IMG/VR virus record: IMGVR_UViG_2695420809_000014
Coordinates: 1 to 12,227 of that record
Strand: one strand, 5' to 3'
Length of the DNA stretch: 12,227 nt
Source of the DNA: a virus
Taxonomy: Duplodnaviria > Heunggongvirae > Uroviricota > Caudoviricetes
The notes under the pieces are model-generated. The model had not been told where the DNA came from. It worked only from the letters and a program-made list of their open reading frames with translations, and did no database searches. A program made the translations under genes and the position numbers. Positions 1 through 12,227 of the stretch are shown here, piece after piece; position 1 is the first letter of the stretch; each line of letters starts with the position of its first letter.

Positions 1-558
1 TATCGCGTCCTCAACAATGAATTTTGTGATGCGGCGCCTGGTGCCTCCAGGTGACGTTAACCAGTAAACCATTAACGCCGGATTGTTAGTTGATGTCTGT
101 TACGCAAGTAAAAGACCGCTTGTTTTAACTGTTCCGCGTGCGCTGAGCCGCATTCACCGCATCACAAAATTCACTTTAAAAGGGGCGGGTATCACGGGAA
201 AAACAAAACGAATACCCGCCAAAAGGTAATCAACATGGGTTGTTGTAGCGGAGTTGTCACTCAGGCGTATGGTCAACCTGACAACCCGGTGTCCTCAACG
301 GGGAAGGAATAACCCCGCCATACTTACCGCCGCGCCATTTCGCGGAGTGCCACAACCGGAAGCGCACGGTCGACGAAAATTTAACGACAGGCTATCTATG
401 AACCAGCAACCTCGCCGTGCGCTTTCGCGTTATGCTCTGACTTTTCAGAGAAATATCCTTTCAGTAAACTGTCAGTGCCGGATGTTCACCCGTGTCCGGC
501 GCACGCACTCCACTTCACCCATGGAGAACTCCTTAATTACCAACCCTCAGGAGGGTGA

Positions 559-792
559 ATGTTAAAATCAACTCTTATTGCTAAATGCCTTTATCAAAAT
601 CGCATGGTAAGCAGCATTTCAATAGGCGAGTCTGCAGTTAAAAGTATTTTCGAAGAGTACTTTCCCGGGCATGATTTTAATAAATGGAATACCAAATTAC
701 CGCCAGCAGTTTCAACGCGTATTCTGAAAGCAACTGAAAGAGCAAGTACAATTCGCGTTAACTATTTCATTAAAGATTTGTGGGATCTTTGA
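559..792 (+). CDS. hypothetical protein, 77 aa
   Basis: ATG at 559 preceded by AGGAGG (549-554); third codon positions biased to A/T as expected for real coding sequence in a lower-GC segment; 3' end overlaps the convergent gene 770-1177 by 23 bp. No family recognised. Confidence 0.45.
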   Translation: MLKSTLIAKCLYQNRMVSSISIGESAVKSIFEEYFPGHDFNKWNTKLPPAVSTRILKATERASTIRVNYFIKDLWDL

Positions 793-1177
793 TATCCACA
801 GAGCCTAAAGTATGTGCATATGGATGTGCTATTGTGCGCCCTCGCAGATTTGCATCATTTTCTAAATTCACTGAACGAAACAGGGCATCAACAAGGCTCT
901 GTACAATGCAAAGGCAATCGAAGACTGTCGCCGTTTCTGTTTTGATTGATGAAAGAACATGGCCATTCACGCAAACAGAAATTACCCGTTTATTAACATC
1001 GCTTTCCTGCTTTTGATTATCAGAACCATATAGCCCAGAAAAAGCATTGCGCACATTACGAACCATATTATCGATGGTTTCTTTTTTGGTGTATGCCGGG
1101 TCAATTTTCACCAGACTATCACCGAGAGTCGTTGCAGCAATTGTCTGGATTTCTTTTGGTAAATCTTTAAATTCCAT
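770..1177 (-). CDS. hypothetical protein, 135 aa, distal gene of the leftward early operon
   Basis: ATG at 1177 with GAGG 6 nt upstream; separated by 22 bp from the stop of the upstream minus-strand gene (1200); about 41% GC versus about 50% for the surrounding phage backbone. No family recognised. Confidence 0.6.
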   Translation of the reverse strand: MEFKDLPKEIQTIAATTLGDSLVKIDPAYTKKETIDNMVRNVRNAFSGLYGSDNQKQESDVNKRVISVCVNGHVLSSIKTETATVFDCLCIVQSLVDALFRSVNLENDANLRGRTIAHPYAHTLGSVDIKDPTNL

Positions 1178-1199
1178 TATTAGCCTCGTTGGTTAGCTA

Positions 1200-1418
1200 T
1201 TAACGTGGGTATGTAATCATTCTGGCAATGCTTAATGCCGCTGCTTTTTCCAGATTGGTGATATCCTGCTCCAGAGCGGACAGATTTTCAGCCTGCTTAG
1301 CCCTGGCTTCATTGGCCCATTTCAGGTCCTGCGCAGCCTTAATTTTCTGGTGCATCCACTCATAAAGTTCATCATCGGTATAGTCTGGCGCGATGATGAC
1401 GGGTTCTCGTTTCTGCAT
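1200..1418 (-). CDS. hypothetical early-left protein, 72 aa, predicted helical/coiled-coil
   Basis: ATG at 1418 with GAGGA 6 nt upstream; packed in the same minus-strand operon as its neighbours. Confidence 0.6.
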   Translation of the reverse strand: MQKREPVIIAPDYTDDELYEWMHQKIKAAQDLKWANEARAKQAENLSALEQDITNLEKAAALSIARMITYPR

Positions 1419-1447
1419 ACTGATTCCTCGCGGTGCTGCTTCGCTTA

Positions 1448-1576
1448 TCAGCCGTTAGATTTTGCCGGGCTGGAAAGCGCCTGTTTAAATTCGCTGAAGC
1501 TGAGGGCTTCTTCGCCTTCGGCAAGGCCTTCGAAGTATTCTTCGTAAGCCTTTTCCATGATTGTGTCGAAATCCAT
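1448..1576 (-). CDS. small acidic protein, 42 aa (net charge about -7)
   Basis: ATG at 1576 preceded by AGGTGG with a 5-nt spacer; start lies 1 nt after the TGA of the upstream gene (translational coupling); not in the supplied ORF track because it is under 60 aa. Confidence 0.45.
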   Translation of the reverse strand: MDFDTIMEKAYEEYFEGLAEGEEALSFSEFKQALSSPAKSNG

Positions 1577-1577
1577 A

Positions 1578-1733
1578 TCACCCACCTGAATCTCTTTCCA
1601 GCCAGCGACGCGCTCCAGATTCGGTTTTAAACGTTTTGCTTTTGGTATACGTCATTGCGGTGAACGTGCCGTCCTGGTTTGGAAACACGCCGTACACCAG
1701 AGATTCGTTGTTGCCAAGATCGATAGTATCCAT
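1578..1733 (-). CDS. hypothetical early-left protein, 51 aa (alternative start at 1814 gives 78 aa)
   Basis: In-frame ATG at 1733 with GAGG 5 nt upstream; first gene downstream of the palindromic operator pair at 1919-1957; size and position resemble the small ydaF/ydaG-type genes of Rac-like prophages (recollection, not verified). Confidence 0.5.
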   Translation of the reverse strand: MDTIDLGNNESLVYGVFPNQDGTFTAMTYTKSKTFKTESGARRWLERDSGG

Positions 1734-1918
1734 GCTGACCTCATTCCCCCTTAACGCCGGGGTAGCGGAACAAAAACCTGCTGCATAGTTATTAAAGTTG
1801 AACCCTGCCGTCATGTTCTTACGCCTCGGGCTGGCTACTTAACCCCTGACCACTGCCGGGTAACTCGAAGTATTTCCCTGCGTTCTGTGGGGCGGGGTGG
1901 GTTGGTATGAAAAGAAGG

Positions 1919-1957
1919 ATACCCATGGGTATTTAAAAAGTAAATACCCATGGGTAA
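1919..1957. promoter_or_regulatory. OL-like operator pair: two 14-bp palindromes ATACCCATGGGTAT (1919-1932) and ATACCCATGGGTAA (1944-1957)
   Basis: Perfect and near-perfect palindromes 25 bp centre to centre, just downstream of the repressor gene stop and upstream of the leftward small-gene operon; same WTACC-N4-GGTAW pattern as the three sites in the repressor/cro-like intergenic region. Confidence 0.5.
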
Positions 1958-1998
1958 CTTTTTGCGGTGTCTTAACTGGTGACTAGTTGTTTGGTGAG

Positions 1999-2418
1999 CT
2001 ATGATGCGTTTTGTGCTTTCTTTTTACGGATTTCTTCGTAGATCATATTGTAATACTGTTTTTTCTCTTCAAGAGTTTTTAATAAGTTATCCGCTTCACT
2101 TTCTGGCAGTTCGTCTAAGAGATCTAAAAAAATACGTTGTCGTGGCGTTAGAACCCTTGTTTCATAACTGGAGGCTGTGTTCGTTGATGATGAAACGATA
2201 CCATCCATCCATCCCCGGGGTAACCCAAAGGACTCTTCGATAATCTCCACCATATCATCAGCGATCCGTTTTTTTCCCTTTTTCCCCTCTGGGTACAACA
2301 TTCTTGATACATAAGAAGGCTCGCGCCCGATCTTTCTGGCCACGTTAACCGCTTTACCATCGCATTTCTCATCACGAATTTTGATGAGTTGCTGTCGTCT
2401 AAATTCATATTTGTCCAT
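1999..2418 (-). CDS. phage repressor, short HTH type (RacR-like, 139 aa)
   Basis: N-terminal HTH-like segment (KAVNVARKIGREPSYVSRML); divergent from a Cro-like gene; no SD before the ATG and a TATTAT -10 hexamer 6 nt upstream, consistent with a leaderless maintenance transcript as for lambda cI. Confidence 0.8.
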   Translation of the reverse strand: MDKYEFRRQQLIKIRDEKCDGKAVNVARKIGREPSYVSRMLYPEGKKGKKRIADDMVEIIEESFGLPRGWMDGIVSSSTNTASSYETRVLTPRQRIFLDLLDELPESEADNLLKTLEEKKQYYNMIYEEIRKKKAQNAS

Positions 2419-2437
2419 AGGTAAATAATAGATGCGA

Positions 2438-2493
2438 TTACCGCAAGGTAAACAACCTGTGGGTATTGACTTTTGTTTACCTGTGGGTATTCT
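2438..2493. promoter_or_regulatory. OR-like region: three WTACC-N4-GGTAW sites (2438-2451, 2453-2466, 2477-2490) overlapping divergent promoters
   Basis: TTACCGCAAGGTAA, CAACCTGTGGGTAT and TTACCTGTGGGTAT; rightward promoter candidate TTGACT (2466-2471), 16-bp spacer, TATTCT (2488-2493); leftward -10 TATTAT (complement of 2425-2430). Confidence 0.55.
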
Positions 2494-2518
2494 TTGCTGT
2501 GTTTACTAAGGAGTAGCT

Positions 2519-2800
2519 ATGGAAGAATTAAGAATATTTCTCAATTCTCTTTCGTCAGATGAACAGCGTATGTTTGCATGCGAGTGTGGTACCAGCATCG
2601 GTTATCTAAGAAAGGCATTGAGTAAAGGTCAAGTGTTAGGGGCATCGTTATGTGTCCTTATTGAGCGAGCCAGTAATGGTGAAGTTACACGTCAGCAACT
2701 AAGGCCTTTTGATTGGATGAATATTTGGCCCGAGCTGGAAGATACCAAAACGTTAACACAACCACTTTCTAGGAGCTTGATTCATGAAAATCAAGCATGA
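2519..2800 (+). CDS. Cro-like HTH regulator, YdaS family-like (93 aa)
   Basis: ATG 2519 with AAGGAG and 5-nt spacer; C-terminal IERASNGEVTRQQLRPFDW resembles the YdaS/Cro-type motif; divergent from the repressor. Confidence 0.75.
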   Translation: MEELRIFLNSLSSDEQRMFACECGTSIGYLRKALSKGQVLGASLCVLIERASNGEVTRQQLRPFDWMNIWPELEDTKTLTQPLSRSLIHENQA

Positions 2801-3209
2801 ACACATCCGCATGGCGATGAATGCCTGGGCTCATTCGGACGGTGAAAAAGTTCCGGCAGCTGAAATAACCCAGTCTTATTTTGAGTTGGGTATGACGTTT
2901 CCTGAATTGTACGACGACAGCCATCCGGAAGCCCTGTCTCGTAATACCCAGAAAATTTTCCGCTGGGTAGAAAAAAACACCCCTGATGCGGTTAAAAAAA
3001 TTCAGGCGTTGTTACCGGCGATCGAAAAAGCAATGCCGCCTCCGCTGGTGGCCCGAATGCGCAGCCACAGTTCGGAATATCACCGGGAGCTTGTCGAGCG
3101 ACGGGAGCGCCTGGTGAAAGATATCGATGAGTTTGTTGCGGCAGCGATCGTGTTGTTCGATCAGATGAATCGTGGTGGTCCGGCGGGAAATGCCGTGGTG
3201 GCGCATTGA
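2784..3209 (+). CDS. YdaT-like protein (141 aa), CII-type regulator/toxin family
   Basis: Begins MKIKHEHI, which I recall as the YdaT family N-terminus; AGGAG upstream; overlaps the preceding gene by 17 bp. Confidence 0.7.
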   Translation: MKIKHEHIRMAMNAWAHSDGEKVPAAEITQSYFELGMTFPELYDDSHPEALSRNTQKIFRWVEKNTPDAVKKIQALLPAIEKAMPPPLVARMRSHSSEYHRELVERRERLVKDIDEFVAAAIVLFDQMNRGGPAGNAVVAH

Positions 3210-3229
3210 TAACGTGTTCTGGGGGGGGG

Positions 3230-4195
3230 ATGAAGCTCCTTTTTGCTGAACGTCCGCTGGTTATAAACACGCAGCTGGCGATGAAAATTGGTCTGAACGA
3301 AGCCATCGTGTTGCAGCAGTTGCATTACTGGTTGAGAGATACCGGTTCCGGCATGGAATGTGATGGTGTTCGCTGGATTTATAACACAACAGAACAATGG
3401 CTGGAGCAGTTCCCGTTCTGGTCAGAGTCAACGTTAAAACGCGCATTTGCAAGTCTGAAAACGCTGGGGCTTTTACGTTGCGAAAAGCTCAATAAATCAA
3501 AGCGTGATATGACTAATTTTTACACGATTAATTACGAGAGCGAGCTTTTAGATGGTGGCAAAGTGAGCGAATCCATCAGATCAAAATGCGCTGCTCCATC
3601 AGGTCAAAATGACACGATGGAAGAGGCCAAAATGGCACGTTCCATTGGTTCAAAACGACTCAATGTCATCGGGTCAAAATGGCCTGATGATCTTACAGAG
3701 AATACAACAGAGATTACTACAGAGAATAAAAACACTTCTCGTCCGGAAGCTTCGCAACCGGACCCGCAGACGGTTGAACAGGATTTTTTAACCCGACACC
3801 CTGACGCGGTTGTGTTCAGTGCAAAAAAACGCCAGTGGGGCAACCAGGAGGATTTGGCGTGTGCGCAGTGGATCTGGGGGCGAATCGTGAGTCTTTACGA
3901 GCAGGCCGCCAGCGATGATGGCGAGATTTCGCGACCGAAAGAACCCAACTGGACCGCATGGGCCAACGACGTGCGCACAATGCGGATGCTGGATGGCAGA
4001 ACTCACAGACAAATTTGTGAAATGTTTGGTCGGGTGCAGCGGGATCCATTCTGGGTAAAAAATATCATGAGTCCGTCAAAGCTTCGCGAAAAATGGGATG
4101 AACTGGTTATCCGCCTGGGGCGTTCGTCTGTACAGCGTTGTGTGAATCATATTTCTGAGCCGGATACCGAAATTCCGCCGGGGTTCAGGGGGTAA
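3230..4195 (+). CDS. replication initiation protein, O-like replisome organiser (YdaU position)
   Basis: ATG 3230 directly abuts a G9 tract (3221-3229); N-terminal winged-helix-like region; five about 23-bp-spaced iterons inside the coding sequence; followed by a DnaC-like gene. An in-frame TTG at 3206 is a less likely alternative start. Confidence 0.8.
   Translation: MKLLFAERPLVINTQLAMKIGLNEAIVLQQLHYWLRDTGSGMECDGVRWIYNTTEQWLEQFPFWSESTLKRAFASLKTLGLLRCEKLNKSKRDMTNFYTINYESELLDGGKVSESIRSKCAAPSGQNDTMEEAKMARSIGSKRLNVIGSKWPDDLTENTTEITTENKNTSRPEASQPDPQTVEQDFLTRHPDAVVFSAKKRQWGNQEDLACAQWIWGRIVSLYEQAASDDGEISRPKEPNWTAWANDVRTMRMLDGRTHRQICEMFGRVQRDPFWVKNIMSPSKLREKWDELVIRLGRSSVQRCVNHISEPDTEIPPGFRG
3574..3730. 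repeat. origin-like iteron array (5 copies, core TCAAAATG, about 23-bp period) plus AT-rich tract with three tandem 12-mers beginning ACAGAGA
   Basis: Iteron cores near 3581, 3604, 3628, 3651, 3674; AT-rich 12-mers at 3695-3730; located inside the O-like gene as in ori-lambda. Confidence 0.6.
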
Positions 4196-4201
4196 CGGGC
4201 C

Positions 4202-4948
4202 ATGAAAAATATCGCGACAGGTGGTGTTCTTGAGCGTATCCGTAAGCTGACCCCGCAGCATGTAATCGCGCCGTACCGGACAGTGGACGAGTGGCGCGAG
4301 TGGCAACTGGCAGAAGGGCGAAAACGTAGCGAGGAGATCAACCGCCAGAATCGCCAGTTGCGGGTGGAAAAAATCCTGAATCGTTCGGGCATCCAGCCTC
4401 TGCACAGCAAATGCTCGTTTGCGAATTATCAGGTGCAGAACGACGGGCAAAAACACGCGCTGAGCCAGGCAAAATCCATCGCTGACGAACTGATGACCGG
4501 GTGCACGAATTTTGTGTTCAGCGGTAAGCCGGGTACCGGAAAGAACCACCTTGCAGCCGCCATTGGCAATCATCTTCTGGCGAAAGGTCGCAGCGTGATT
4601 GTGATAACGGTGGCTGATGTGATGCTGGCGTTACACAACAGCTACGACAACAAAAACTCAGGCGAAAAATTTTTACAGGGGTTGTGTGATGTTGACCTGC
4701 TTGTCCTGGATGAAATCGGAATGCAGCGGGATACGCGCAACGAGCAGGTCACACTGAACCAGATAGTCGACCGCAGAACGGCTTCGATGCGTAGTGTCGG
4801 AATGCTGACGAACCTGAACCACGTAGCGATGAGTACGCTTCTTGGCGAGCGTGTGATGGACCGCATGGTCATGAACGGTGGTCGCTGGGTGAATTTTAAC
4901 TGGGAGAGCTGGCGTTCGAATGTCAGACACCTGAGGGTTGTGAAGTAA
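4202..4948 (+). CDS. DnaC-like helicase loader (IstB-type AAA+ ATPase; YdaV position)
   Basis: Walker A GKPGTGKNHLAAA and Walker B DLLVLDEIG; start 7 nt after the stop of the O-like gene. Confidence 0.9.
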   Translation: MKNIATGGVLERIRKLTPQHVIAPYRTVDEWREWQLAEGRKRSEEINRQNRQLRVEKILNRSGIQPLHSKCSFANYQVQNDGQKHALSQAKSIADELMTGCTNFVFSGKPGTGKNHLAAAIGNHLLAKGRSVIVITVADVMLALHNSYDNKNSGEKFLQGLCDVDLLVLDEIGMQRDTRNEQVTLNQIVDRRTASMRSVGMLTNLNHVAMSTLLGERVMDRMVMNGGRWVNFNWESWRSNVRHLRVVK

Positions 4949-4969
4949 TTTTGTCCGGAGGAAATTTTA

Positions 4970-5731
4970 ATGGAAACCGTTTTTGACGCACTGAAAGCAA
5001 TGGGAAAAGCCACATCGGTAGAACTGGCCGCGCGACTTGATATCAGTCGTGAAGAGGTTCTCAACGAGCTGTGGGAACTCAAAAGAAATGGCGTCGTTGA
5101 TAAAACTGGTCACACCTGGTTTCTGGCTGGCGAAAGTGAATCCCTGGTAACCGAAGAGCGGCCAGTAAAATCTGAAGCACAGGATATGCTGACCGGGGAG
5201 GTCGAACAAAAAGTTACCGCAGACATGATGATTGAGTTTATCGGTCAGGATGGGGCTAAAACGTGTGAGGAACTGGCGGGTAAGTTCGGCATCAGTACTC
5301 GCAAGGTTGCTTCCACGCTGGCGGTGGTAACCGCAACGGGGCGGCTGGCACGCGTTAATCAGAGCGGTAAATTTCGTTACTGCATGCCGGGCGGTAATTT
5401 ACCAGCAGAGCCGAAAGCAGCATCGGTAACGGAAAATGATGGTAAGACCTTTCCTCAGCCAGCAGGTGTTGCGTTACCAGTCCGGGAAGCCGCAACACAG
5501 GAAGAAATTAAAACAGAAACTGTAGCGGGCATTGTGCAGTCGCTGCCATCGTTTACTGAAACGCGAGCGGATGACCTGATTTTACCATCGCTGCATATGG
5601 CAAACCTCGAACTGCGTCGGGCGAAAAGTCATGTCCAGAAGTGGGAACGAGTCTGCGCCGCGCTGCGGGAGCTGAACAAGCACCGGGATATTCTTCGGGA
5701 TATTACCGCGACCGGAGAGCTGCAGCGGTGA
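4970..5731 (+). CDS. hypothetical protein with two winged-helix-like repeats (253 aa; YdaW position)
   Basis: GGAGG with 8-nt spacer before ATG 4970; repeated motif ([15 protein letters not shown]... and [15 protein letters not shown]...) suggests tandem wH domains; C-terminal helical segment. Confidence 0.7.
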
Positions 5732-6045
5732 GTGGCTGGAAGAAGTGGTACGAGGCTGAAATCATGATACTCCGTCAGTGTGCGGGAACGATGACGGTCG
5801 AAAGCATTGGGAGGCTGACCGGTCGTACAGGTGATGCTGTCAGAACGAAAGCGCGGGAACTGGGTGTCAGTCTGATGTTACGGGGTGATTATCACCAGTC
5901 AACAAAATATCCACAGAGTGATATTGAACTGGCGCGACAGCTGCATCAGCGTGGCGTACCCAGGAGAGAAATCGCCAGAAAATTTGGAATGCCGTTGCGC
6001 ACAGTGAATAACTACGTTTATTTCGACAGGAGAGTTCAGGAGTGA
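5728..6045 (+). CDS. HTH DNA-binding protein (about 105 aa)
   Basis: GTG 5728 overlaps the upstream stop as GTGA; HTH-like segment [22 protein letters not shown]; alternative start ATG 5764 with GAGG upstream. Confidence 0.6.
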
Positions 6046-6392
6046 GGGTGAGAGTTTATATTGCCGGTCCAATGACCGGGTATAAAAATTTCAACCGTGA
6101 GGCGTTCCACAAGGCGGAAGAGGAACTGAAACGGGAAGGGCATACAGTCTTGAACCCGGCAGTACTTCCGGACGGGCTGACACAGCCGCACTACATGGAT
6201 ATCTGCATGGCAATGATACGTAGCGTGGATGCGATTTATATGCTGAAAGACTGGCAACGGTCAGCAGGCGCTAAAGCGGAACTGGCTCTGGCGGAGAAGC
6301 TAGGGCATGTGGTTGTTTTTCAGAGGGGGGCGATATGCCGATTCTCTGGTTTCAGGAGGTGTGGGAAAAAGAAATGTGGGAAGGTCTTGTGA
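6042..6392 (+). CDS. DUF4406-like (nucleoside 2-deoxyribosyltransferase-like) protein
   Basis: N-terminal VYIAGPMTG motif typical of that fold; GTG 6042 overlaps the upstream stop as GTGA; alternative GTG at 6048. Confidence 0.65.
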   Translation: MRVRVYIAGPMTGYKNFNREAFHKAEEELKREGHTVLNPAVLPDGLTQPHYMDICMAMIRSVDAIYMLKDWQRSAGAKAELALAEKLGHVVVFQRGAICRFSGFRRCGKKKCGKVL

Positions 6393-6460
6393 TTGTGGCC
6401 GAAACAGTTCTTTTATTATGGTCTGTGATTGCGTGTATTTTTATGATTTATTGTGAATGA
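6335..6460 (+). CDS. small hydrophobic peptide, 41 aa (or 28 aa from ATG 6374)
   Basis: ATG 6335 follows GAGGGGGG; translation MPILWFQEVWEKEMWEGLVIVAETVLLLWSVIACIFMIYCE; overlaps the 3' end of the DUF4406-like gene in another frame; not in the ORF track. Confidence 0.3.
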   Translation: MPILWFQEVWEKEMWEGLVIVAETVLLLWSVIACIFMIYCE

Positions 6461-6485
6461 TGTGAATCTCGCGGTGGCCACTGAA

Positions 6486-6530
6486 TTGCAACCATTACCC
6501 CCTGTGATGTAATTGTGGGGTAATGGTTGC
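6486..6530 (+). promoter_or_regulatory. 14-bp perfect inverted repeat (6488-6501 / 6517-6530) with an embedded promoter-like TTGCAA-16 bp-TGTAAT
   Basis: GCAACCATTACCCC ... GGGGTAATGGTTGC; -35 candidate 6486-6491 in the left arm, -10 candidate 6508-6513 in the loop; lies upstream of the gene starting at 6564. Confidence 0.35.
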
Positions 6531-6563
6531 GCAGGCATAGCGACAGGACTGGATGAGAAAAAT

Positions 6564-6986
6564 ATGACGAAATTTACCAGAGAGCAATTGATTGCTCATG
6601 CTAATGAAAGTGTGAAATCCATGAAATTTGCTGCGCGACAGACCGTGTTTAAGACTTCAAGAGTTGCCATTGAAATGGATCTTGCGCTTGCCCGTATTGC
6701 GCTTGCCTCACTTGAAGCAATGCCAGTTGCATGGTCCTGTGCTCACAATATGGTTTTGTTCAATGCTGAATCTGTTGCGGCATACGCAAAACACTCAGCC
6801 ATTGCGCCAAAACCCCTGTACGCTGCGCAACCGGCATCACTTTCACATGAGGAAGAGTTGGCAATGCTGGTTAAACAATTGGTAAGTCAGTTGAAAAAAG
6901 CGAAACCAGATTGCAAATTACCGGATATGGCGATGGGGTATCTGGAGCGGAATGGGCTGATAAGCGCGGAGGATGTTTTACGATGA
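6564..6986 (+). CDS. hypothetical protein, 140 aa
   Basis: First ATG of the frame (the track's 6513 start is a TTG inside the inverted repeat); weak SD; Ala/Leu-rich helical composition. Confidence 0.65.
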   Translation: MTKFTREQLIAHANESVKSMKFAARQTVFKTSRVAIEMDLALARIALASLEAMPVAWSCAHNMVLFNAESVAAYAKHSAIAPKPLYAAQPASLSHEEELAMLVKQLVSQLKKAKPDCKLPDMAMGYLERNGLISAEDVLR

Positions 6987-7066
6987 CCTGGCCGGAGGCA
7001 TTCACAACGACAGGAATTGCAATGGCGGCAGCACTTGTTGTGTATTCGATTTGCAGCTGGGGATAA
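6983..7066 (+). CDS. small hydrophobic peptide, 27 aa
   Basis: ATG overlaps the upstream TGA as ATGA; MTWPEAFTTTGIAMAAALVVYSICSWG has one predicted transmembrane segment; not in the ORF track. Confidence 0.35.
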   Translation: MTWPEAFTTTGIAMAAALVVYSICSWG

Positions 7067-7277
7067 AAACGGTTTGCGGGGAAATCTTAGTTAAGTAGAA
7101 TGACTGCGGGTGCTTGAGGCTATCTGTCTCAGGCATGAACACCAAAAGGCAGATAGAGAAAAGCCCCAGTTAACATTACGCGTCCTGCACGACGCTTAAC
7201 ATTAATCTGAGGCCCAATCTATGTCTCACAAATGTAGGTTAGCCTCTTACGTGCCGAAAGGCAAGGAGAAGCAGGCT

Positions 7278-7433
7278 ATGAAGCAGCAAAAGGCGATGTT
7301 AATCGCCCTGATCGTCATCTGTTTAACCGTCATAGTGACGGCACTGGTAACGAGGAAAGACCTCTGCGAGGTACGAATCCGAACCGGCCAGACGGAGGTC
7401 GCTGTCTTCACAGCTTACGAACCTGAGGAGTAA
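7278..7433 (+). CDS. hokD: Hok/Gef-family type I toxin (51 aa)
   Basis: Translation MKQQKAMLIALIVICLTVIVTALVTRKDLCEVRIRTGQTEVAVFTAYEPEE matches my recollection of E. coli HokD/RelF; AAGGAG upstream; an in-frame ATG at 7221 would give a 70-aa extended form. Paralogue assignment is uncertain because no relBE is upstream. Confidence 0.85.
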   Translation: MKQQKAMLIALIVICLTVIVTALVTRKDLCEVRIRTGQTEVAVFTAYEPEE

Positions 7434-7503
7434 GAGACCCGGCGGGGGAGAAATCCCTCGCCACCGCTGATGTGTCAGGCATCCTCAACGCACCCGCACT
7501 TAA

Positions 7504-7529
7504 CCCGCTTCGGCGGGTTTTGTTTTTTC
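7504..7529 (+). terminator. intrinsic terminator at the hok transcript 3' end
   Basis: CCCGC-TTCG-GCGGG stem-loop followed by TTTTGTTTTTT. Confidence 0.7.
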
Positions 7530-7600
7530 TGGTCGTTCTGGTTTACAATTCGCACGCCAGCCTGAACAACTGGCACCTGCTGCGCCAGCAGAGACAACCG

Positions 7601-7879
7601 ATGGCGCACGATACCAAATTACACAATTCTGATGATTCTGCCGTCTTTGCCAGCAGGCACGGGCGGCGTTCCCGCACTTTCAAATCTGACTGGTTCCAGC
7701 ATCCCCCATGCACTGAAGAACAGGCCGAGTGGCTAATTCAGTGCTACCGCAGACACGGATACGAGATTAAGAAAGCCCTCAGCCTCGATTATCGTCACTG
7801 GATAATCTCCGTCAGGCTTCCTTACTCCGAGCGCCCACCGCGTCCGTCCCGCACATTCCAGCAACGCATCTGGAGGTAA
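7601..7879 (+). CDS. hypothetical protein, 92 aa
   Basis: First ATG downstream of the hok terminator in an ORF that ends 1 nt before the DUF968 gene start; weak SD. Confidence 0.5.
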   Translation: MAHDTKLHNSDDSAVFASRHGRRSRTFKSDWFQHPPCTEEQAEWLIQCYRRHGYEIKKALSLDYRHWIISVRLPYSERPPRPSRTFQQRIWR

Positions 7880-7880
7880 C

Positions 7881-8930
7881 GTGCGGGTATTACTTCGACC
7901 TGTTCTGGTACCGGAACTCGGGCTGGTGATCGTTAAGCCGGGCCGTGAATCCATGCCGGTATTCCACAATACCCGGGTACTGGTGGAGCCGGAACCGAAA
8001 AGCATGCGTAATCTGCCGTCCGGGGTTGTTCCTGCCGTTCACCAGCCGCTAGTGGAAGACAAAACATTGCTGCCGTTTTTCAGTAACGCACGGGTGATTC
8101 GTGCTGCTGGTGGTGCTGGTGCATTGTCTGACTGGCTGTTGCGCCATATTAAATCCTGCCAGTGGCCACACGGCGATTATCATCACAGCGAAACCGTCAT
8201 TCACCGTTATGGTACCGGCGCAATGGTGTTGTGCTGGCACTGCGACAACCAGCTGCGTGACCAGACATCCGAATCACTCGAGCAACTTGCTCATCAAAAC
8301 CTGTCAGCATGGATGATTGACGTCATCGGTCACGCAATAAGCGGTACGCAGGAGCGTGAATTATCTCTGGCTGAATTATCCTGGTGGGCGGTCTGCAATC
8401 AGGTGGCGGACGCGCTTCCGGAGGCAGTATTACGTCGTTCTCTGGGGTTACGTGCGGAAAAAATCCGCCCCTTGTACCGCGAAAGCGACATCGTACCGGG
8501 AGAGCAGACCGCCATCAGCATACTGAAACAGCGCACAAAAAATCTTGCGCCGCTGCCTCACGCCCACCAGCAACAGAACCCACCACAGGAAAAGACGGTG
8601 GTCAGCATTGCCGTTGATCCTGAGCCTCCGGAATCTTTCATGAAACGACCTAAACGTCGCCGCTGGGTTAACGAGAAATACACACGCTGGGTGAAGACAC
8701 AGCCGTGTGCGTGTTGTGGTAAGCCAGCCGACGATCCCCATCACCTGATTGGTCATGGTCAGGGCGGAATGGGGACAAAATCTCACGATATTTTCACGCT
8801 ACCGCTGTGTCGGGAGCATCACAACGAGCTTCATGCGGATCCGCTGGCGTTCGAAGAAAAGCATGGTTCTCAGGTTGATTTAATTTTTCGTTTTCTTGAT
8901 CACGCCTTTGCAACTGGCGTGCTTGGGTAA
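7881..8930 (+). CDS. DUF968-like protein (YdfU-like, 349 aa), C-terminal Cys/His HNH-like motif
   Basis: GTG 7881 with GGAGG upstream; C-terminal CACCG...HHLIGHG...CREHHNELH cluster. Confidence 0.75.
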   Translation: MRVLLRPVLVPELGLVIVKPGRESMPVFHNTRVLVEPEPKSMRNLPSGVVPAVHQPLVEDKTLLPFFSNARVIRAAGGAGALSDWLLRHIKSCQWPHGDYHHSETVIHRYGTGAMVLCWHCDNQLRDQTSESLEQLAHQNLSAWMIDVIGHAISGTQERELSLAELSWWAVCNQVADALPEAVLRRSLGLRAEKIRPLYRESDIVPGEQTAISILKQRTKNLAPLPHAHQQQNPPQEKTVVSIAVDPEPPESFMKRPKRRRWVNEKYTRWVKTQPCACCGKPADDPHHLIGHGQGGMGTKSHDIFTLPLCREHHNELHADPLAFEEKHGSQVDLIFRFLDHAFATGVLG

Positions 8931-8942
8931 AAGAGGTGACTG

Positions 8943-9299
8943 ATGCTCATAGATTTGGTTTTACCTTACCCGCCGACGGTGAACACTTACTGGCGACGCC
9001 GTGGCAGCACATATTTTATCTCGGAGGAGGGAAAGCGTTATCGCCGGGCTGTGGCGTTTATTGTTCGCCAGCAGCGGCTGAAATTAAGCCTGTCCGGAAG
9101 GCTGGCGATAAAGGTGATTGCAGAGCCACCGGATAAGCGTCGTCGCGACCTGGACAACATTCTGAAAGCACCGCTGGATGCGCTGACGCATGCGGGAGTG
9201 TTAATGGACGATGAGCAGTTTGATGAAATCAATATCGTTCGTGGTCAGCCAGTATCTGGTGGACGTCTGGGGGTGAAGATTTACCCCATAATGCATTAA
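8943..9299 (+). CDS. rusA: RusA-family Holliday junction resolvase
   Basis: Conserved PDKRRRDLDN, DALTHAG and GGRL segments; size 118 aa; GAGGTG before ATG 8943. Confidence 0.85.
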   Translation: MLIDLVLPYPPTVNTYWRRRGSTYFISEEGKRYRRAVAFIVRQQRLKLSLSGRLAIKVIAEPPDKRRRDLDNILKAPLDALTHAGVLMDDEQFDEINIVRGQPVSGGRLGVKIYPIMH

Positions 9300-9313
9300 G
9301 AGCAGGTCAAAAA

Positions 9314-10135
9314 ATGAAACTGGAAGATTTACCGAAATACTACTCCCCAAAATCCCCTGGCCTGACCGATGCATCGGCCTCAACGTCAAAAGATGCGCTG
9401 AGTATCACTGATGTGATGGCCGCGCAGGGCATGACACAGAATCGGGCTGAGATGGGTTTTTCTGCGTTCCTGGGGAAAATGGGCATCAGTATGAATGACA
9501 GGGCGCGGGCAACAGAATTACTGGCAGATTATGCACTCAGTCGGTGCGATCGTGTGGCGGCGTTGAGAAAACTTCCGGCAGAAATAAAACCGGTAGTGAT
9601 GCGCATTATGGCTTCGTACGCTTTTGAGGATTATGCCCGCAGCGCAGCGAGTAAAAAGCAGTGCCCTTGTTGCTATGGGGAAAAATTTATTGAAAGCATA
9701 GTTTTTACAAACAAGGTCCAGTATCCGGATGGTAAGCCGCCGGTATGGGCAAAGTGTACGAAAGGTGTGTATCCGTCTTACTGGGAAGAATGGAAAAAAG
9801 TCAGGGAGGTGGTAAAAGTTGCCTGTCCGGAGTGTGGCGGAAAGGGTGAGGTTTCCACCGCCTGTAAGGATTGCCGTGGGCGTGGTGTCGCCATTCATCG
9901 TGAAGAGTCGGTAAAACGTGGTATGCCTGTTATCAGAGACTGCCAGCGTTGTGGTGGTCGTGGCTATGAAAGACTACCATCAACGGAGGCATTTAATGCT
10001 ATATGCGAGGTGACAAACCAGATAACACGCGCGTCATGGGAAAAAACAGTTAAGAAATTTTATGATGCGCTGGTGACCCGGTTTGATATTGAAGAAGCAT
10101 GGGCTGAGCGGCAGTTAAAAAAGGTAACTAGGTAA
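9314..10135 (+). CDS. late-gene antiterminator Q-like protein with four CxxCxGxG zinc-finger repeats
   Basis: Sits immediately upstream of a pR'-like promoter and tR'-like terminator; CPCCYGEKF, CPECGGKGE, CKDCRGRGV, CQRCGGRGY motifs; resembles Qin-type Q homologues from memory. Confidence 0.6.
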   Translation: MKLEDLPKYYSPKSPGLTDASASTSKDALSITDVMAAQGMTQNRAEMGFSAFLGKMGISMNDRARATELLADYALSRCDRVAALRKLPAEIKPVVMRIMASYAFEDYARSAASKKQCPCCYGEKFIESIVFTNKVQYPDGKPPVWAKCTKGVYPSYWEEWKKVREVVKVACPECGGKGEVSTACKDCRGRGVAIHREESVKRGMPVIRDCQRCGGRGYERLPSTEAFNAICEVTNQITRASWEKTVKKFYDALVTRFDIEEAWAERQLKKVTR

Positions 10136-10140
10136 CAAGG

Positions 10141-10168
10141 TTGATTTTTCCGGAATCTGTGGTAAATT
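10141..10168 (+). promoter_or_regulatory. pR'-like late promoter
   Basis: TTGATT (10141-10146), 16-bp spacer, TG-extended TAAATT (10163-10168), 5 nt after the Q-like stop. Confidence 0.5.
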
Positions 10169-10215
10169 CGTCATAACGATGGGCGTTTTATGCCTGACGT
10201 TAGAAGAGTTTCTAC

Positions 10216-10241
10216 AACCCGCCGCTGAGCGGGTTTTTTAT
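10216..10241 (+). terminator. tR'-like intrinsic terminator
   Basis: AACCCGC-CGCTGA-GCGGGTT stem-loop followed by TTTTTT, about 50 nt downstream of the promoter. Confidence 0.65.
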
Positions 10242-10278
10242 TGCGAAATTAATTACGGACCGTTATTATTCTGCTCCC

Positions 10279-10354
10279 GGCCCTTTAGCTCAGTGGTGAG
10301 AGCGAGCGACTCATAATCGCCAGGTCGCTGGTTCAAATCCAGCAAGGGCCACCA
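10279..10354 (+). tRNA. tRNA with CAT anticodon, closest to the lysidine-type tRNA-Ile2 (ileZ/ileX-like); tRNA-Met not excluded
   Basis: 7-bp acceptor stem GGCCCTT/AAGGGCC, D-arm GCTCAGTGGTGAGAGC, anticodon loop CTCATAA, T-arm GGTTCAAATCC, encoded CCA. Confidence 0.8.
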
Positions 10355-10455
10355 TCACAAACCGCCATTAGCTTATCAGGAAGAGCAGACGACACGATAA
10401 CAGGGTTGTTGGTGCGGGGGGCGGGTCCCCGATGGCGGTCCATTATCGGTATTCA

Positions 10456-10532
10456 GCGTTGTTAGCTCAGCCGGACAGAGCAATTGCCTTCTAAGCAATC
10501 GGTCACTGGTTCGAATCCAGTACAGCGCGCCA
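10456..10532 (+). tRNA. tRNA-Arg (TCT anticodon, argU/argN-like)
   Basis: Acceptor stem GCGTTGT/ACAGCGC, anticodon loop CTTCTAA, T-arm GGTTCGAATCC, encoded CCA; close to E. coli argU by eye. Confidence 0.85.
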
Positions 10533-10642
10533 TATTCATTCTTCCAGATTCCTTCCGGCAGAGCCTTATACTGAAATATACCTGGCTCAGGATATTGTTG
10601 AAAATATTATATGTTTGTCAAAAATAAAAGTTCTGTTAAGTA

Positions 10643-10996
10643 TTGATTGAATATTTGTTATACGGTCTAATGGTTTTTTCAGCATTAAATATTTATCATT
10701 CATATGGTGTGGGTAGAGTGAATATTGATGAGGCGTCGGGGTGTTTCATCCTTAGGCAGCGTATTGATATAGTCAATGCAGCACGAGCAAAGGCCTTCAG
10801 CCGTTTGACAGTTTTGTTCTGTACTCCTGATCGTCTTTCGGGAAGAGACGTTATTATTCTGAATAGTGATGCTATACAGAGGGTTTGCGATGAGTTCATG
10901 GTTGCTAATTCAGAATTATTTGCTCTTGTTCAGGAGTACAACAGAATAGCCAGGACCTGTGGTATGGATGAACTTCGGATTACTCATCTGGGGTAG
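10643..10996 (+). CDS. hypothetical protein in the AT-rich cargo segment (117 aa from TTG 10643; 108 aa from ATG 10670), hydrophobic N-terminus
   Basis: Longest ORF in the cargo; frequent ATA, AGA and AGG codons; no convincing SD at either start, so the call is tentative. Confidence 0.4.
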   Translation: MIEYLLYGLMVFSALNIYHSYGVGRVNIDEASGCFILRQRIDIVNAARAKAFSRLTVLFCTPDRLSGRDVIILNSDAIQRVCDEFMVANSELFALVQEYNRIARTCGMDELRITHLG

Positions 10997-11076
10997 ATAC
11001 ATATCTGGATTATCACCTGTTACGGTAAAAAGTGATTGCTTACTGTTTTTGTGAATGGCATTGCAGCAGCCGGATA

Positions 11077-11163
11077 ATGTCAGTGCTGGCTGACGGTGTG
11101 CTGGTGGCGGGTGTGGTGGTTGTTGCTTTCCCGTTGCTGAAAAAGAAAACGCCAGACTGTTAG
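11077..11163 (+). CDS. possible small hydrophobic peptide, 28 aa
   Basis: MSVLADGVLVAGVVVVAFPLLKKKTPDC: hydrophobic core then a KKK tail; weak SD (GGAT); not in the ORF track. Confidence 0.2.
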   Translation: MSVLADGVLVAGVVVVAFPLLKKKTPDC

Positions 11164-11389
11164 CCGGGTATCAGTTAGCGGGAGAAATTTTTAAATACTT
11201 CACAATTCAGGCGGTTGACTGTTGTCTGGTTTGCGGGGAGTTTGTTAAAAGAAACTGGCATGGTGAATCCCCCTGTGCGGAGGGGCAATCAGCGAGTAGG
11301 TATATGGGATAATCGCGGATTCAGGTGCTGGTACTGAATTCACCGGGAGGCACCCGGCACCATGCAATGGCACATAGCGCCACTCTCCA

Positions 11390-11416
11390 GCCCCTCTCCG
11401 GAGGGGCTGTTTATAT
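11390..11416 (+). terminator. candidate intrinsic terminator
   Basis: GCCCCTC-TCCG-GAGGGGC stem-loop followed by a T-rich tract (TGTTTATATTGATTTT). Confidence 0.4.
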
Positions 11417-11443
11417 TGATTTTGTCAGATGTGAGTAAACTCC

Positions 11444-11779
11444 TTATGGATTTTGTTGTTTTAGCCCATAAGGACATATTTGCAGAGTGCAACGGTTATT
11501 AAAGCATTCATTCAATACGTTATCTGTATTTGTAGGGCATTCCTGGCTGTTTTTGATTAAATTCCAGAATGTTTTATTGAATGGTACTATGTTGTAAATG
11601 GTTACAGGTAGCACTTTGTTATTGAGCATGATACCTGTGTGAGTCAGTGTAAATATACTTTCAGGAGGTAAGAAAGCATCCGATTGATACCAGATTATTA
11701 ATTTTATTTTACTCCATATGACTGAAAAAGATATTCCGCATGATGGCTGGATAACTGTATCAATCACAATCCACTTCAT
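11444..11779 (-). CDS. hypothetical protein, 111 aa, in the AT-rich cargo
   Basis: ATG 11779 with AAGGAAA 5 nt upstream; transcribed opposite to the late operon; Trp-rich N-terminal half and Cys-containing C-terminal half; no family recognised. Confidence 0.6.
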
Positions 11780-12038
11780 TTACTTTCCTTGTTTATGCCT
11801 TGCTGGTGATGTTCTGAAAAGTATAAATGATATTTTTGAATTAAACCATAGAGCAGAATTATTTTTCTGATGTTGTTTATTGTTTATTTAAATACAGGGT
11901 GGTTTATATCTCGTCTTGTAGTTTATCCATGCATATCTGCTTGATAATCAGGTTTTTATTTAAGGTATGGTTTTGTGTTTTTTCTGTATTACATGTCAGG
12001 TATTTTAAAGAATTATTTTTCAGATGGTGGAAAGAACC

Positions 12039-12227
12039 ATGGCATTTAAACACTATGATGTTGTCAGGGCGGCGTCGCCATCAGATCTTGCGGAAAAGCT
12101 GACACATAAACTGAAAGAGGGCTGGCAGCCGTTTGGTAGTCCGGTGGCCATAACCCCTTATACTCTGATGCAGGCGATTACAGCAGAAGGTGATGTGGTG
12201 GTCAGTGGTGCAACTGAGCCGGATTGG
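12039..12227 (+). CDS. 5' part of a conserved small phage protein (DUF1737-like by recollection), continues past the window end
   Basis: ATG 12039 preceded by GGTGGA; open frame MAFKHYDVVRAASPSDLAEKLTHKLKEGWQPFGSPVAI... to 12227 with no stop; GC content returns to backbone level. Confidence 0.5.
   Translation, partial: MAFKHYDVVRAASPSDLAEKLTHKLKEGWQPFGSPVAITPYTLMQAITAEGDVVVSGATEPDW

Follow-up and report, generated by a model that had tools for sequence, protein, structure and literature searches.

What does an AT-rich segment carry when it lies where Shiga toxin (Stx) phages carry their toxin genes, and are its contents new? This question is raised by positions 10533-12038 of a viral sequence from the IMG/VR record IMGVR_UViG_2695420809_000014 (Caudoviricetes); the window, that is, the whole stretch of DNA that was analyzed, is 12,227 nucleotides long. 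The original prediction, made without database searches, placed the segment in a slot equivalent to that of stx, recognized no family in it, and proposed an undescribed accessory module with a toxin, exclusion or defence function. Our analysis upholds the position and revises the contents. We consider, with a probability of about 0.85, that the segment is the late-operon moron slot of a lambdoid prophage of the CFT073 phi-potB type, and that it holds four independently assorting modules. Its main contents are already known, namely the published iraL locus and a catalogued small RNA (sRNA). The modules, listed with their lengths in amino acids (aa) and together with the iraL promoter region, are the following.

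10718-10996, plus strand: gene for a conserved protein, probably of 92 aa, with a GTG start at 10718 (phrog_2873)
11032-11163, plus strand: hydrophobic 43-aa small membrane protein of the DUF3927 family, TciB-like (PF13064, phrog_1470)
11229-11418, plus strand: sRNA gene of the STnc100 family (Rfam RF02076)
11444-11779, minus strand: iraL, RssB anti-adaptor of the IraM family, 111 aa (NCBIfam and CFT073 match)
11780-12038, minus strand: 5' untranslated region (UTR) and promoter region of iraL, AT-rich, with a guanine-plus-cytosine (GC) content of 0.29

The three elements first noticed in the segment, a plus-strand open reading frame (ORF) at 10643-10996, the 43-aa ORF beside a set of hairpins and the 111-aa minus-strand ORF, all exist. 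The statement that none belonged to a recognizable family was wrong for three of the four elements (iraL, STnc100 and DUF3927), and the module can no longer be called undescribed: positions 10237-12223 are 97.6% identical, over 1989 aligned columns, to the phi-potB region of CFT073 that contains the characterized iraL gene (c1429; Hryckowian et al. 2014, PMC4045071; locus tag also in PMC12890032). Nor did a toxin, exclusion or defence function find support, there being no toxin family match in Pfam, NCBIfam or PHROGs and no PADLOC match. In particular, no AB5 or other recognizable toxin appeared when the island proteins were scanned against these three databases, and the PADLOC defence models gave zero matches at E<=1 for all three proteins.

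The 111-aa product of the minus-strand gene passes NF007393, the NCBIfam model for anti-adapter protein IraM, with 161.8 bits over residues 1-110 where the cutoff is 121, is identical to CFT073 IraL (WP_000871291.1) at 109 of 111 positions, and aligns through residues 1-78 to the solved IraM chain 8TWD_A (E 7e-32). On these matches the gene is iraL. IraL of CFT073 binds RssB and raises both the level and the half-life of RpoS in logarithmic phase, and RssB binding and the effect on RpoS half-life have been reported for the CFT073 and Shigella sonnei alleles only (PMC4045071); expression of iraL increases in a fur mutant and at 37 C (PMC7157518, PMC12890032). The upstream region is conserved as well, being 98% identical to that of CFT073. 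On the minus strand, 11812-11784 reproduces nucleotides 1-29 of the iraL sequence obtained by rapid amplification of 5' cDNA ends, ACATCACCAGCAAGGCATAAACAAGGAAACCA (PMC4045071), so that 29 of its 32 published nucleotides are present from 11812 downward and the published transcription start site maps to 11812. A -10 element, TATACT, is found at 11825-11820, and a Shine-Dalgarno sequence, AAGGA, at 11787-11791. A literature search under the old CFT073 locus tags c1426-c1429 returned unrelated papers only.

The locus in CFT073 is the closest known system. Both share the gene order Q, tRNAs, an unannotated ORF, DUF3927, STnc100, iraL and DUF1737, and the 5' UTR and -10 of iraL are the same. Only in CFT073 does an IS200C element separate Q from the tRNAs; there the middle tRNA-Arg is intact and the DUF1737 gene truncated, whereas in the window the middle tRNA is degenerate, the esterase gene is full length (as seen in an identical genome) and the probable -35 of iraL has a 1-nt deletion. 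Further changes in the iraL allele with respect to CFT073 are a G to A substitution at the base directly before the transcription start site and two substitutions just ahead of the start codon.

IraM of E. coli K-12 belongs to the same protein family as the IraL of the window, with an ungapped alignment over residues 1-78. It is a Mg2+-starvation anti-adaptor whose structure in complex with RssB is available (8TWD; PMC10844676); IraL and IraM have RssB as a common target, and their published identity is about 59%. The K-12 iraM gene, however, lies on e14 (PMC4045071) in another genomic context, and the PhoP box pattern (T/G)GTTTA-N5-(T/G)GTTTA is absent from both strands of 11780-12038 in the window. 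The best match to a Fur box upstream of iraL reached 11 of 19 positions, which is not above shuffled sequences. With neither a PhoP-box pattern nor an above-chance Fur box upstream, the gene fits better as an IraL-type than as an IraM-type gene.

The hairpin-rich stretch is, by its Rfam match, the sRNA STnc100. The match to RF02076 is full length (model positions 1-206) and scores 132.4 bits against a gathering threshold of 47 (E 1e-29). The predicted RNA has a minimum free energy of -74.6 kcal/mol (z -2.3) and ends in an intrinsic terminator with a 9-bp stem at 11388-11409 followed by TTTATATTGA. This copy is 100% identical to that of CFT073, and all six related loci examined contain one to three STnc100 copies each, mostly 3' of a cargo unit. 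EDL933 has eleven STnc100 copies, of which at least ten give transcripts in uninduced cells; Northern blotting has confirmed one (PMC5331693). In Stx2 phages a copy lies directly 3' of stx2B and partially overlaps the sRNA EcOnc27/sRNA103 (PMC12711010, PMC7873438, PMC4104026), and EcOnc27, which overlaps this copy downstream of stx2B, is bound by Hfq (PMC4104026). The anti-sRNAs AsxR and AgvB (RF02702, RF02703) gave no match at E<=1 in the window and none at E<=10 in 11150-11520 on either strand. PasD sRNAs of prophages of enteropathogenic E. coli (EPEC) have been described (Zhu, Shabalina and Storz, bioRxiv 2026) as structural relatives of STnc100, and in lambdoid prophages they are reported to adjoin the genes for Q and sialate esterase. 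Rfam assigns the window copy to STnc100. On the minus strand inside the sRNA gene, at 11248-11373, RefSeq (PGAP) places a pseudo 'incomplete hypothetical protein', which is probably a spurious annotation artefact. A partial STnc100-like match of 29.9 bits, below the gathering threshold of 47, was also seen on the minus strand at 23-171, in the early region and outside the usual slot between Q and lysis genes.

Comparison with other phages supports the view that these elements occupy an exchangeable position. In the Stx2a phage Stx2_EH2246, two stretches are homologous to the window, the tRNA block at 10239-10540 (88%) and positions 11200-12227 (71%), and its stx2AB genes (positions 1801-3168 of locus L003 in our comparison) occupy the exact place of window positions 10541-11199. 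Thus the stx-equivalent location first proposed from the gene order holds, with stx2AB replacing this interval between homologous flanks. The stx2AB region of Stx2a phages contains tRNAs, stx2AB, STnc100/EcOnc27 with convergent AsxR, an iraM-like gene and nanS-p; its tRNA block and its block of STnc100, iraM-like and DUF1737 genes are homologous to the window, and the iraM-like protein of Stx2_EH2246 is 72% identical to the IraL of the window. The difference is that stx2AB (1368 bp) is swapped for the 92-aa gene and DUF3927 (659 bp). Since the iraL/STnc100 block and the stx2AB block have common flanks, mapped exactly, iraL-type RpoS stabilizers and Shiga toxin move in the same exchangeable slot.

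The other phages point the same way, and the expectation that the cargo at the junction between Q and lysis genes varies among related phages proved correct, with stx2AB, tciA-tciB, TolA-like genes and other small ORFs found in it. Phage mEp460_ev081 is 99.3% identical to the window up to 11366 and then carries a TolA-like cargo. Phage JLK-2012 matches 11064-11374 and resumes at 12046; in the same slot it carries tciA-tciB (TerB and DUF3927), of which the C-terminal part of DUF3927, together with the 5' part of STnc100, is 93% identical in DNA over this interval, and it lacks iraL and the 92-aa gene, while the window lacks the TerB gene. With phage vB_EcoS-640R1 the window shares the Q region as far as 10497 and, further on, 11200-12226; between these two parts the phage carries different small ORFs and additional STnc100 copies.

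The breakpoints of mEp460_ev081 (11366) and JLK-2012 (11374) lie at the end of the most conserved block of STnc100; in an alignment of STnc100 copies the conserved core ends in ...CACCATGC, also given as ...CACCGGGAGGCACCCGGCACCATGC, and two breakpoints fall there. One locus that diverges elsewhere is 100% identical to the window over the 28 nt at 11339-11366 (loci L005, L006 and L007 compared). This arrangement suggests that the conserved core of STnc100 could act as a homology linker for the exchange of cargo modules, a role that, if confirmed at pangenome scale, would help explain the movement of converting genes between lambdoid phages.

Positions 10100-12227 of this E. coli lambdoid prophage are 100% identical to several chromosomes of EPEC or Shiga toxin-producing E. 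coli type. The modules are not equally prevalent: among 5426 complete E. coli genomes, the whole region was found at 80% coverage or more in 863, the iraL segment in 1446, the DUF3927 segment in 2450 and the 92-aa gene segment in 1187; STnc100 was present in 2860 genomes, with as many as 12 places in a single genome.

The 92-aa gene is the sole item in the island left without a functional assignment. Compared with a 61%-identical homologue in locus L011, it gives a ratio of nonsynonymous to synonymous substitution (dN/dS) of 0.26, with 24, 22 and 43 differences at the first, second and third codon positions and no indels, and its frame is the only one open in both lineages. From these comparisons we take the plus-strand ORF to be a real gene under purifying selection. 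It matches phrog_2873 (E 4e-70), with no Pfam or NCBIfam match to the protein. Open starts are available further upstream, at ATG 10670 (108 aa) and TTG 10643 (117 aa). Most of the distant homologues (32-63% identical, 91-95 aa), however, begin where GTG 10718 does, to within a few residues, the exceptions being one that is truncated at the N terminus and a longer, 21%-identical one of 106 aa; the gene is for this reason probably 92 aa long and probably starts at that GTG. The 117-aa reading was rejected on the same grounds; the upstream extension, although open in both lineages, is poorly conserved and is hydrophobic in this lineage alone.

AlphaFold2 models the protein as a two-helix hairpin with a short beta tip (predicted local distance difference test, pLDDT, of 85), and fold searches with this model returned generic helical hairpins only. 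A profile search over 1.84 billion representatives found 20 proteins in total, none of them named. No annotation covered the gene in 40 of 40 RefSeq records sampled across the ranking of the matching genomes. A conserved gene that is present in about 22% of the complete E. coli genomes is thus left unannotated in the sampled records.

Homologues of the gene are found in several surroundings. One that is 38% identical, in an IMG/VR contig, is preceded by tRNAs and followed by genes for TerB, DUF3927, holin, endolysin and terminase. In prophages like those of enterohaemorrhagic E. coli, homologues of 57-61% identity lie directly 3' of a YdeO/GadX-like regulator of the AraC family (L011, 3969-5062; L007, 2933-5360). 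These contexts indicate that the 92-aa gene recurs in the slot with differing neighbours. In some contigs an IS3-family insertion element stands between the regulator and the homologue. A search for related loci with a narrower alignment of the family returned just two, a locus in E. coli and a contig of 2.7 kb that bears the label of a Bacillota metagenome-assembled genome. The homologue on this contig (L015, 1039-1314) is 62% identical; as a guess, the contig would be a mis-binned enterobacterial prophage fragment. As to function, the protein might be a small protein-binding modulator in the style of an anti-adaptor or anti-activator, and the broader proposal that it is a functional host-directed accessory factor is tentative and on the unlikely side.

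The small membrane protein matches the DUF3927 family (PF13064, E 2e-27, 95.6 bits against a gathering threshold of 25), and phrog_1470 is itself labelled 'TciB-like'. Residues 12-39 of the protein, a core of 28 residues, are shared without change with TciB of phage JLK-2012, which is 54 aa long. Missing is the first hydrophobic segment, which reads RLAVVALLLFLVVMVDF in JLK-2012, and the N terminus has been replaced; a stop codon stands one codon upstream of the GTG start. DNA homology to JLK-2012 starts only at 11064, so that this copy is a recombined or truncated variant. A TerB gene (TciA) adjoins DUF3927 in JLK-2012 and in locus L016, and the gene upstream of DUF3927 in the window has no Pfam match to this partner. 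Having lost its first hydrophobic segment, the DUF3927 of the window may be a remnant.

Together, these elements suggest how the slot would work. In the lysogen, iraL would be transcribed from its own sigma-70 promoter, in opposition to the late operon, and IraL would bind the adaptor RssB, withhold RpoS from ClpXP and raise RpoS in growing cells; this activity was shown for the 98%-identical CFT073 protein and is inferred for the allele of the window. STnc100, a structured sRNA with its own terminator, would be the second module, the TciB-like DUF3927 membrane peptide the third, and the 92-aa helical-hairpin protein the fourth, the last two jointly filling the position that stx2AB has in Stx2 phages. 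Transcription of the plus-strand cargo would run toward the STnc100 terminator and may end there unless the RNA polymerase has been modified by Q. Judging from the breakpoints, the STnc100 core would offer common homology for swapping the modules. The net effect on the host would be a rewiring of RpoS and sRNA stress networks rather than a toxin or a phage defence.

Other explanations must be set against this one. The 92-aa protein and DUF3927 could form a pair, an undescribed module for lysogenic conversion or superinfection exclusion: they stand exactly where stx2AB would be, purifying selection acts on the 92-aa gene, this gene is found in 1187 genomes, its product has no match to any family of known function in Pfam, NCBIfam or PHROGs, and the 38%-identical homologue occurs on an unrelated viral contig in the same pre-lysis slot, two genes 5' of DUF3927 and with TerB between them. 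We regard such a module as possible, although on the unlikely side. A different pairing, of DUF3927 with the adjoining structured RNA as a type I toxin-antitoxin system, might be suggested by the short distance (66 nt) from the hydrophobic 43-aa peptide to a highly structured RNA downstream and by the existence of a genuine hok/sok locus elsewhere in the same prophage. However, STnc100 lies on the same strand as the peptide and downstream of it, and so is not antisense to its mRNA; STnc100 copies also follow unrelated cargo without DUF3927 (stx2AB, TolA-like), and the usual partner of DUF3927 is TerB/TciA. This pairing is accordingly very improbable.

No more weight can be given to the idea that the AT-rich segment is what remains of a decaying prophage and has no function. 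Decay would agree with the degenerate middle tRNA, the truncated DUF3927 and the PGAP pseudo-coding sequence in the sRNA region, but iraL, 98% identical to an allele that is functional, is intact, as is the 92-aa gene with the dN/dS given above, STnc100 equals the CFT073 copy at every position, and the block is preserved at 95-100% identity across hundreds of genomes.

The reading of the segment as a moron slot of the phi-potB type has points against it, too. A 1-nt deletion changes the probable -35 of iraL from TTTACA in CFT073 to TTTA-AT (11826-11848), by which expression could differ from that of the CFT073 allele, and expression of iraL in the strain of the window is itself a prediction. 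The linker idea draws on three breakpoints in a handful of loci. Of the signals expected of a moron, the plus-strand cargo has the terminator at 11388-11409, but promoter-like hits in the region number 7 against a chance expectation of 5.0 +/- 2.2; as this is not above chance, promoters belonging to the 92-aa gene, DUF3927 and STnc100 are not demonstrated. Counted in favour of the reading, rare codons per 100 number 9.8 in the 92-aa gene and 6.3 in iraL against 1-4 in backbone genes; 7 of the 14 Ile codons of iraL are ATA, and the neighbouring tRNAs decode AUA and AGA, where the enriched codons are AUA in iraL and AUA and AGA in the 92-aa gene. The genes are small, for which reason this link between tRNAs and rare codons is suggestive only.

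The boundaries of the segment were confirmed along with its composition. The claimed sharp drop in GC content after the second tRNA and its recovery at about 12.04 kb are both present: GC content is 0.390 for 10533-12038, whereas the whole window has 0.483 and positions 1-10532 have 0.496, the fall sets in directly 3' of tRNA-Arg(TCT), and the rise comes at 12039, the start of the DUF1737 ORF (GC 0.519). Among all windows of 1506 bp, for which the median is 0.497, that of lowest GC starts at 10561 (0.388). The segment consists of four compositional blocks rather than a single uniform island.

10533-11030: GC 0.38
11031-11228: GC 0.48
11229-11418: GC 0.55
11419-12038: GC 0.32

The flanking features on both sides of the segment are as follows.

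9314-10135: gene for a Q-family antiterminator (PF03589, E 6e-55)
10216-10242, plus strand: tR'-like intrinsic terminator, with a 7-bp stem (10216-10235) containing 5 G-C pairs followed by a T run; left edge of the late-operon cargo slot
10279-10354, plus strand: tRNA with anticodon CAT, called Met by ARAGORN; in RefSeq the identical gene is given as tRNA-Ile (ileZ type, decoding AUA)
10362-10442, plus strand: degenerate remnant of a middle tRNA-Arg (argN type), from alignment with CFT073 and Stx2_EH2246
10456-10532, plus strand: tRNA-Arg with anticodon TCT (decoding AGA), argO type (ARAGORN, Rfam)
12039-12227, running off the window, plus strand: start of a DUF1737/NanS-p-type sialate esterase gene (PF08410, E 2e-17), the right boundary

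A location 3' of Q, pR', tR' and two tRNAs, as originally described, is borne out by the Q match, the terminator and the tRNAs, with pR' recognized by eye only. The candidate, TTGATT-16-TAAATT at 10141-10168, falls under the threshold of the promoter scan. The short transcript from pR' to tR' (10141-10242) would be the positional counterpart of the sRNA StxS in Stx phages; Rfam gave for this interval a sub-threshold Trp-leader match alone (26.5 bits), presumably owing to the terminator hairpin. The remnant of the middle tRNA-Arg, called by neither ARAGORN nor Rfam, keeps its acceptor and T-arm flanks and has scrambled D and anticodon arms, while the same tRNA is intact in CFT073 and in Stx2 phages. 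From 12039 onward, an identical genome is annotated with a 617-aa SASA-family esterase (a coding sequence of 1851 nt). Zinc-finger repeats of the DnaJ type, CXXCXGXG (PF00684, E 2e-06), occur in the Q antiterminator and may account for the 'chaperone' annotation of a neighbour of STnc100 in Salmonella Fels-1.

Elsewhere in the window, the hok/sok type I toxin-antitoxin locus spans 7108-7433, with an Rfam sok match of 120 bits (7108-7283) and a Hok/Gef ORF at 7221-7433. Directly 3' of hok, at 7442-7523, IsrK, an sRNA of Salmonella prophages, is matched with 27 bits, which is below its gathering threshold of 50. The early region at 2519-6392 contains YdaS- and YdaT-like genes, a DnaC/IstB-like ATPase, DUF1627 and DUF4406. 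It is unlike the early region of the genome (L001) that is 100% identical to the window over 10100-12227, where a SMODS nucleotidyltransferase gene and a SLATT gene are found with IS1203 between them.

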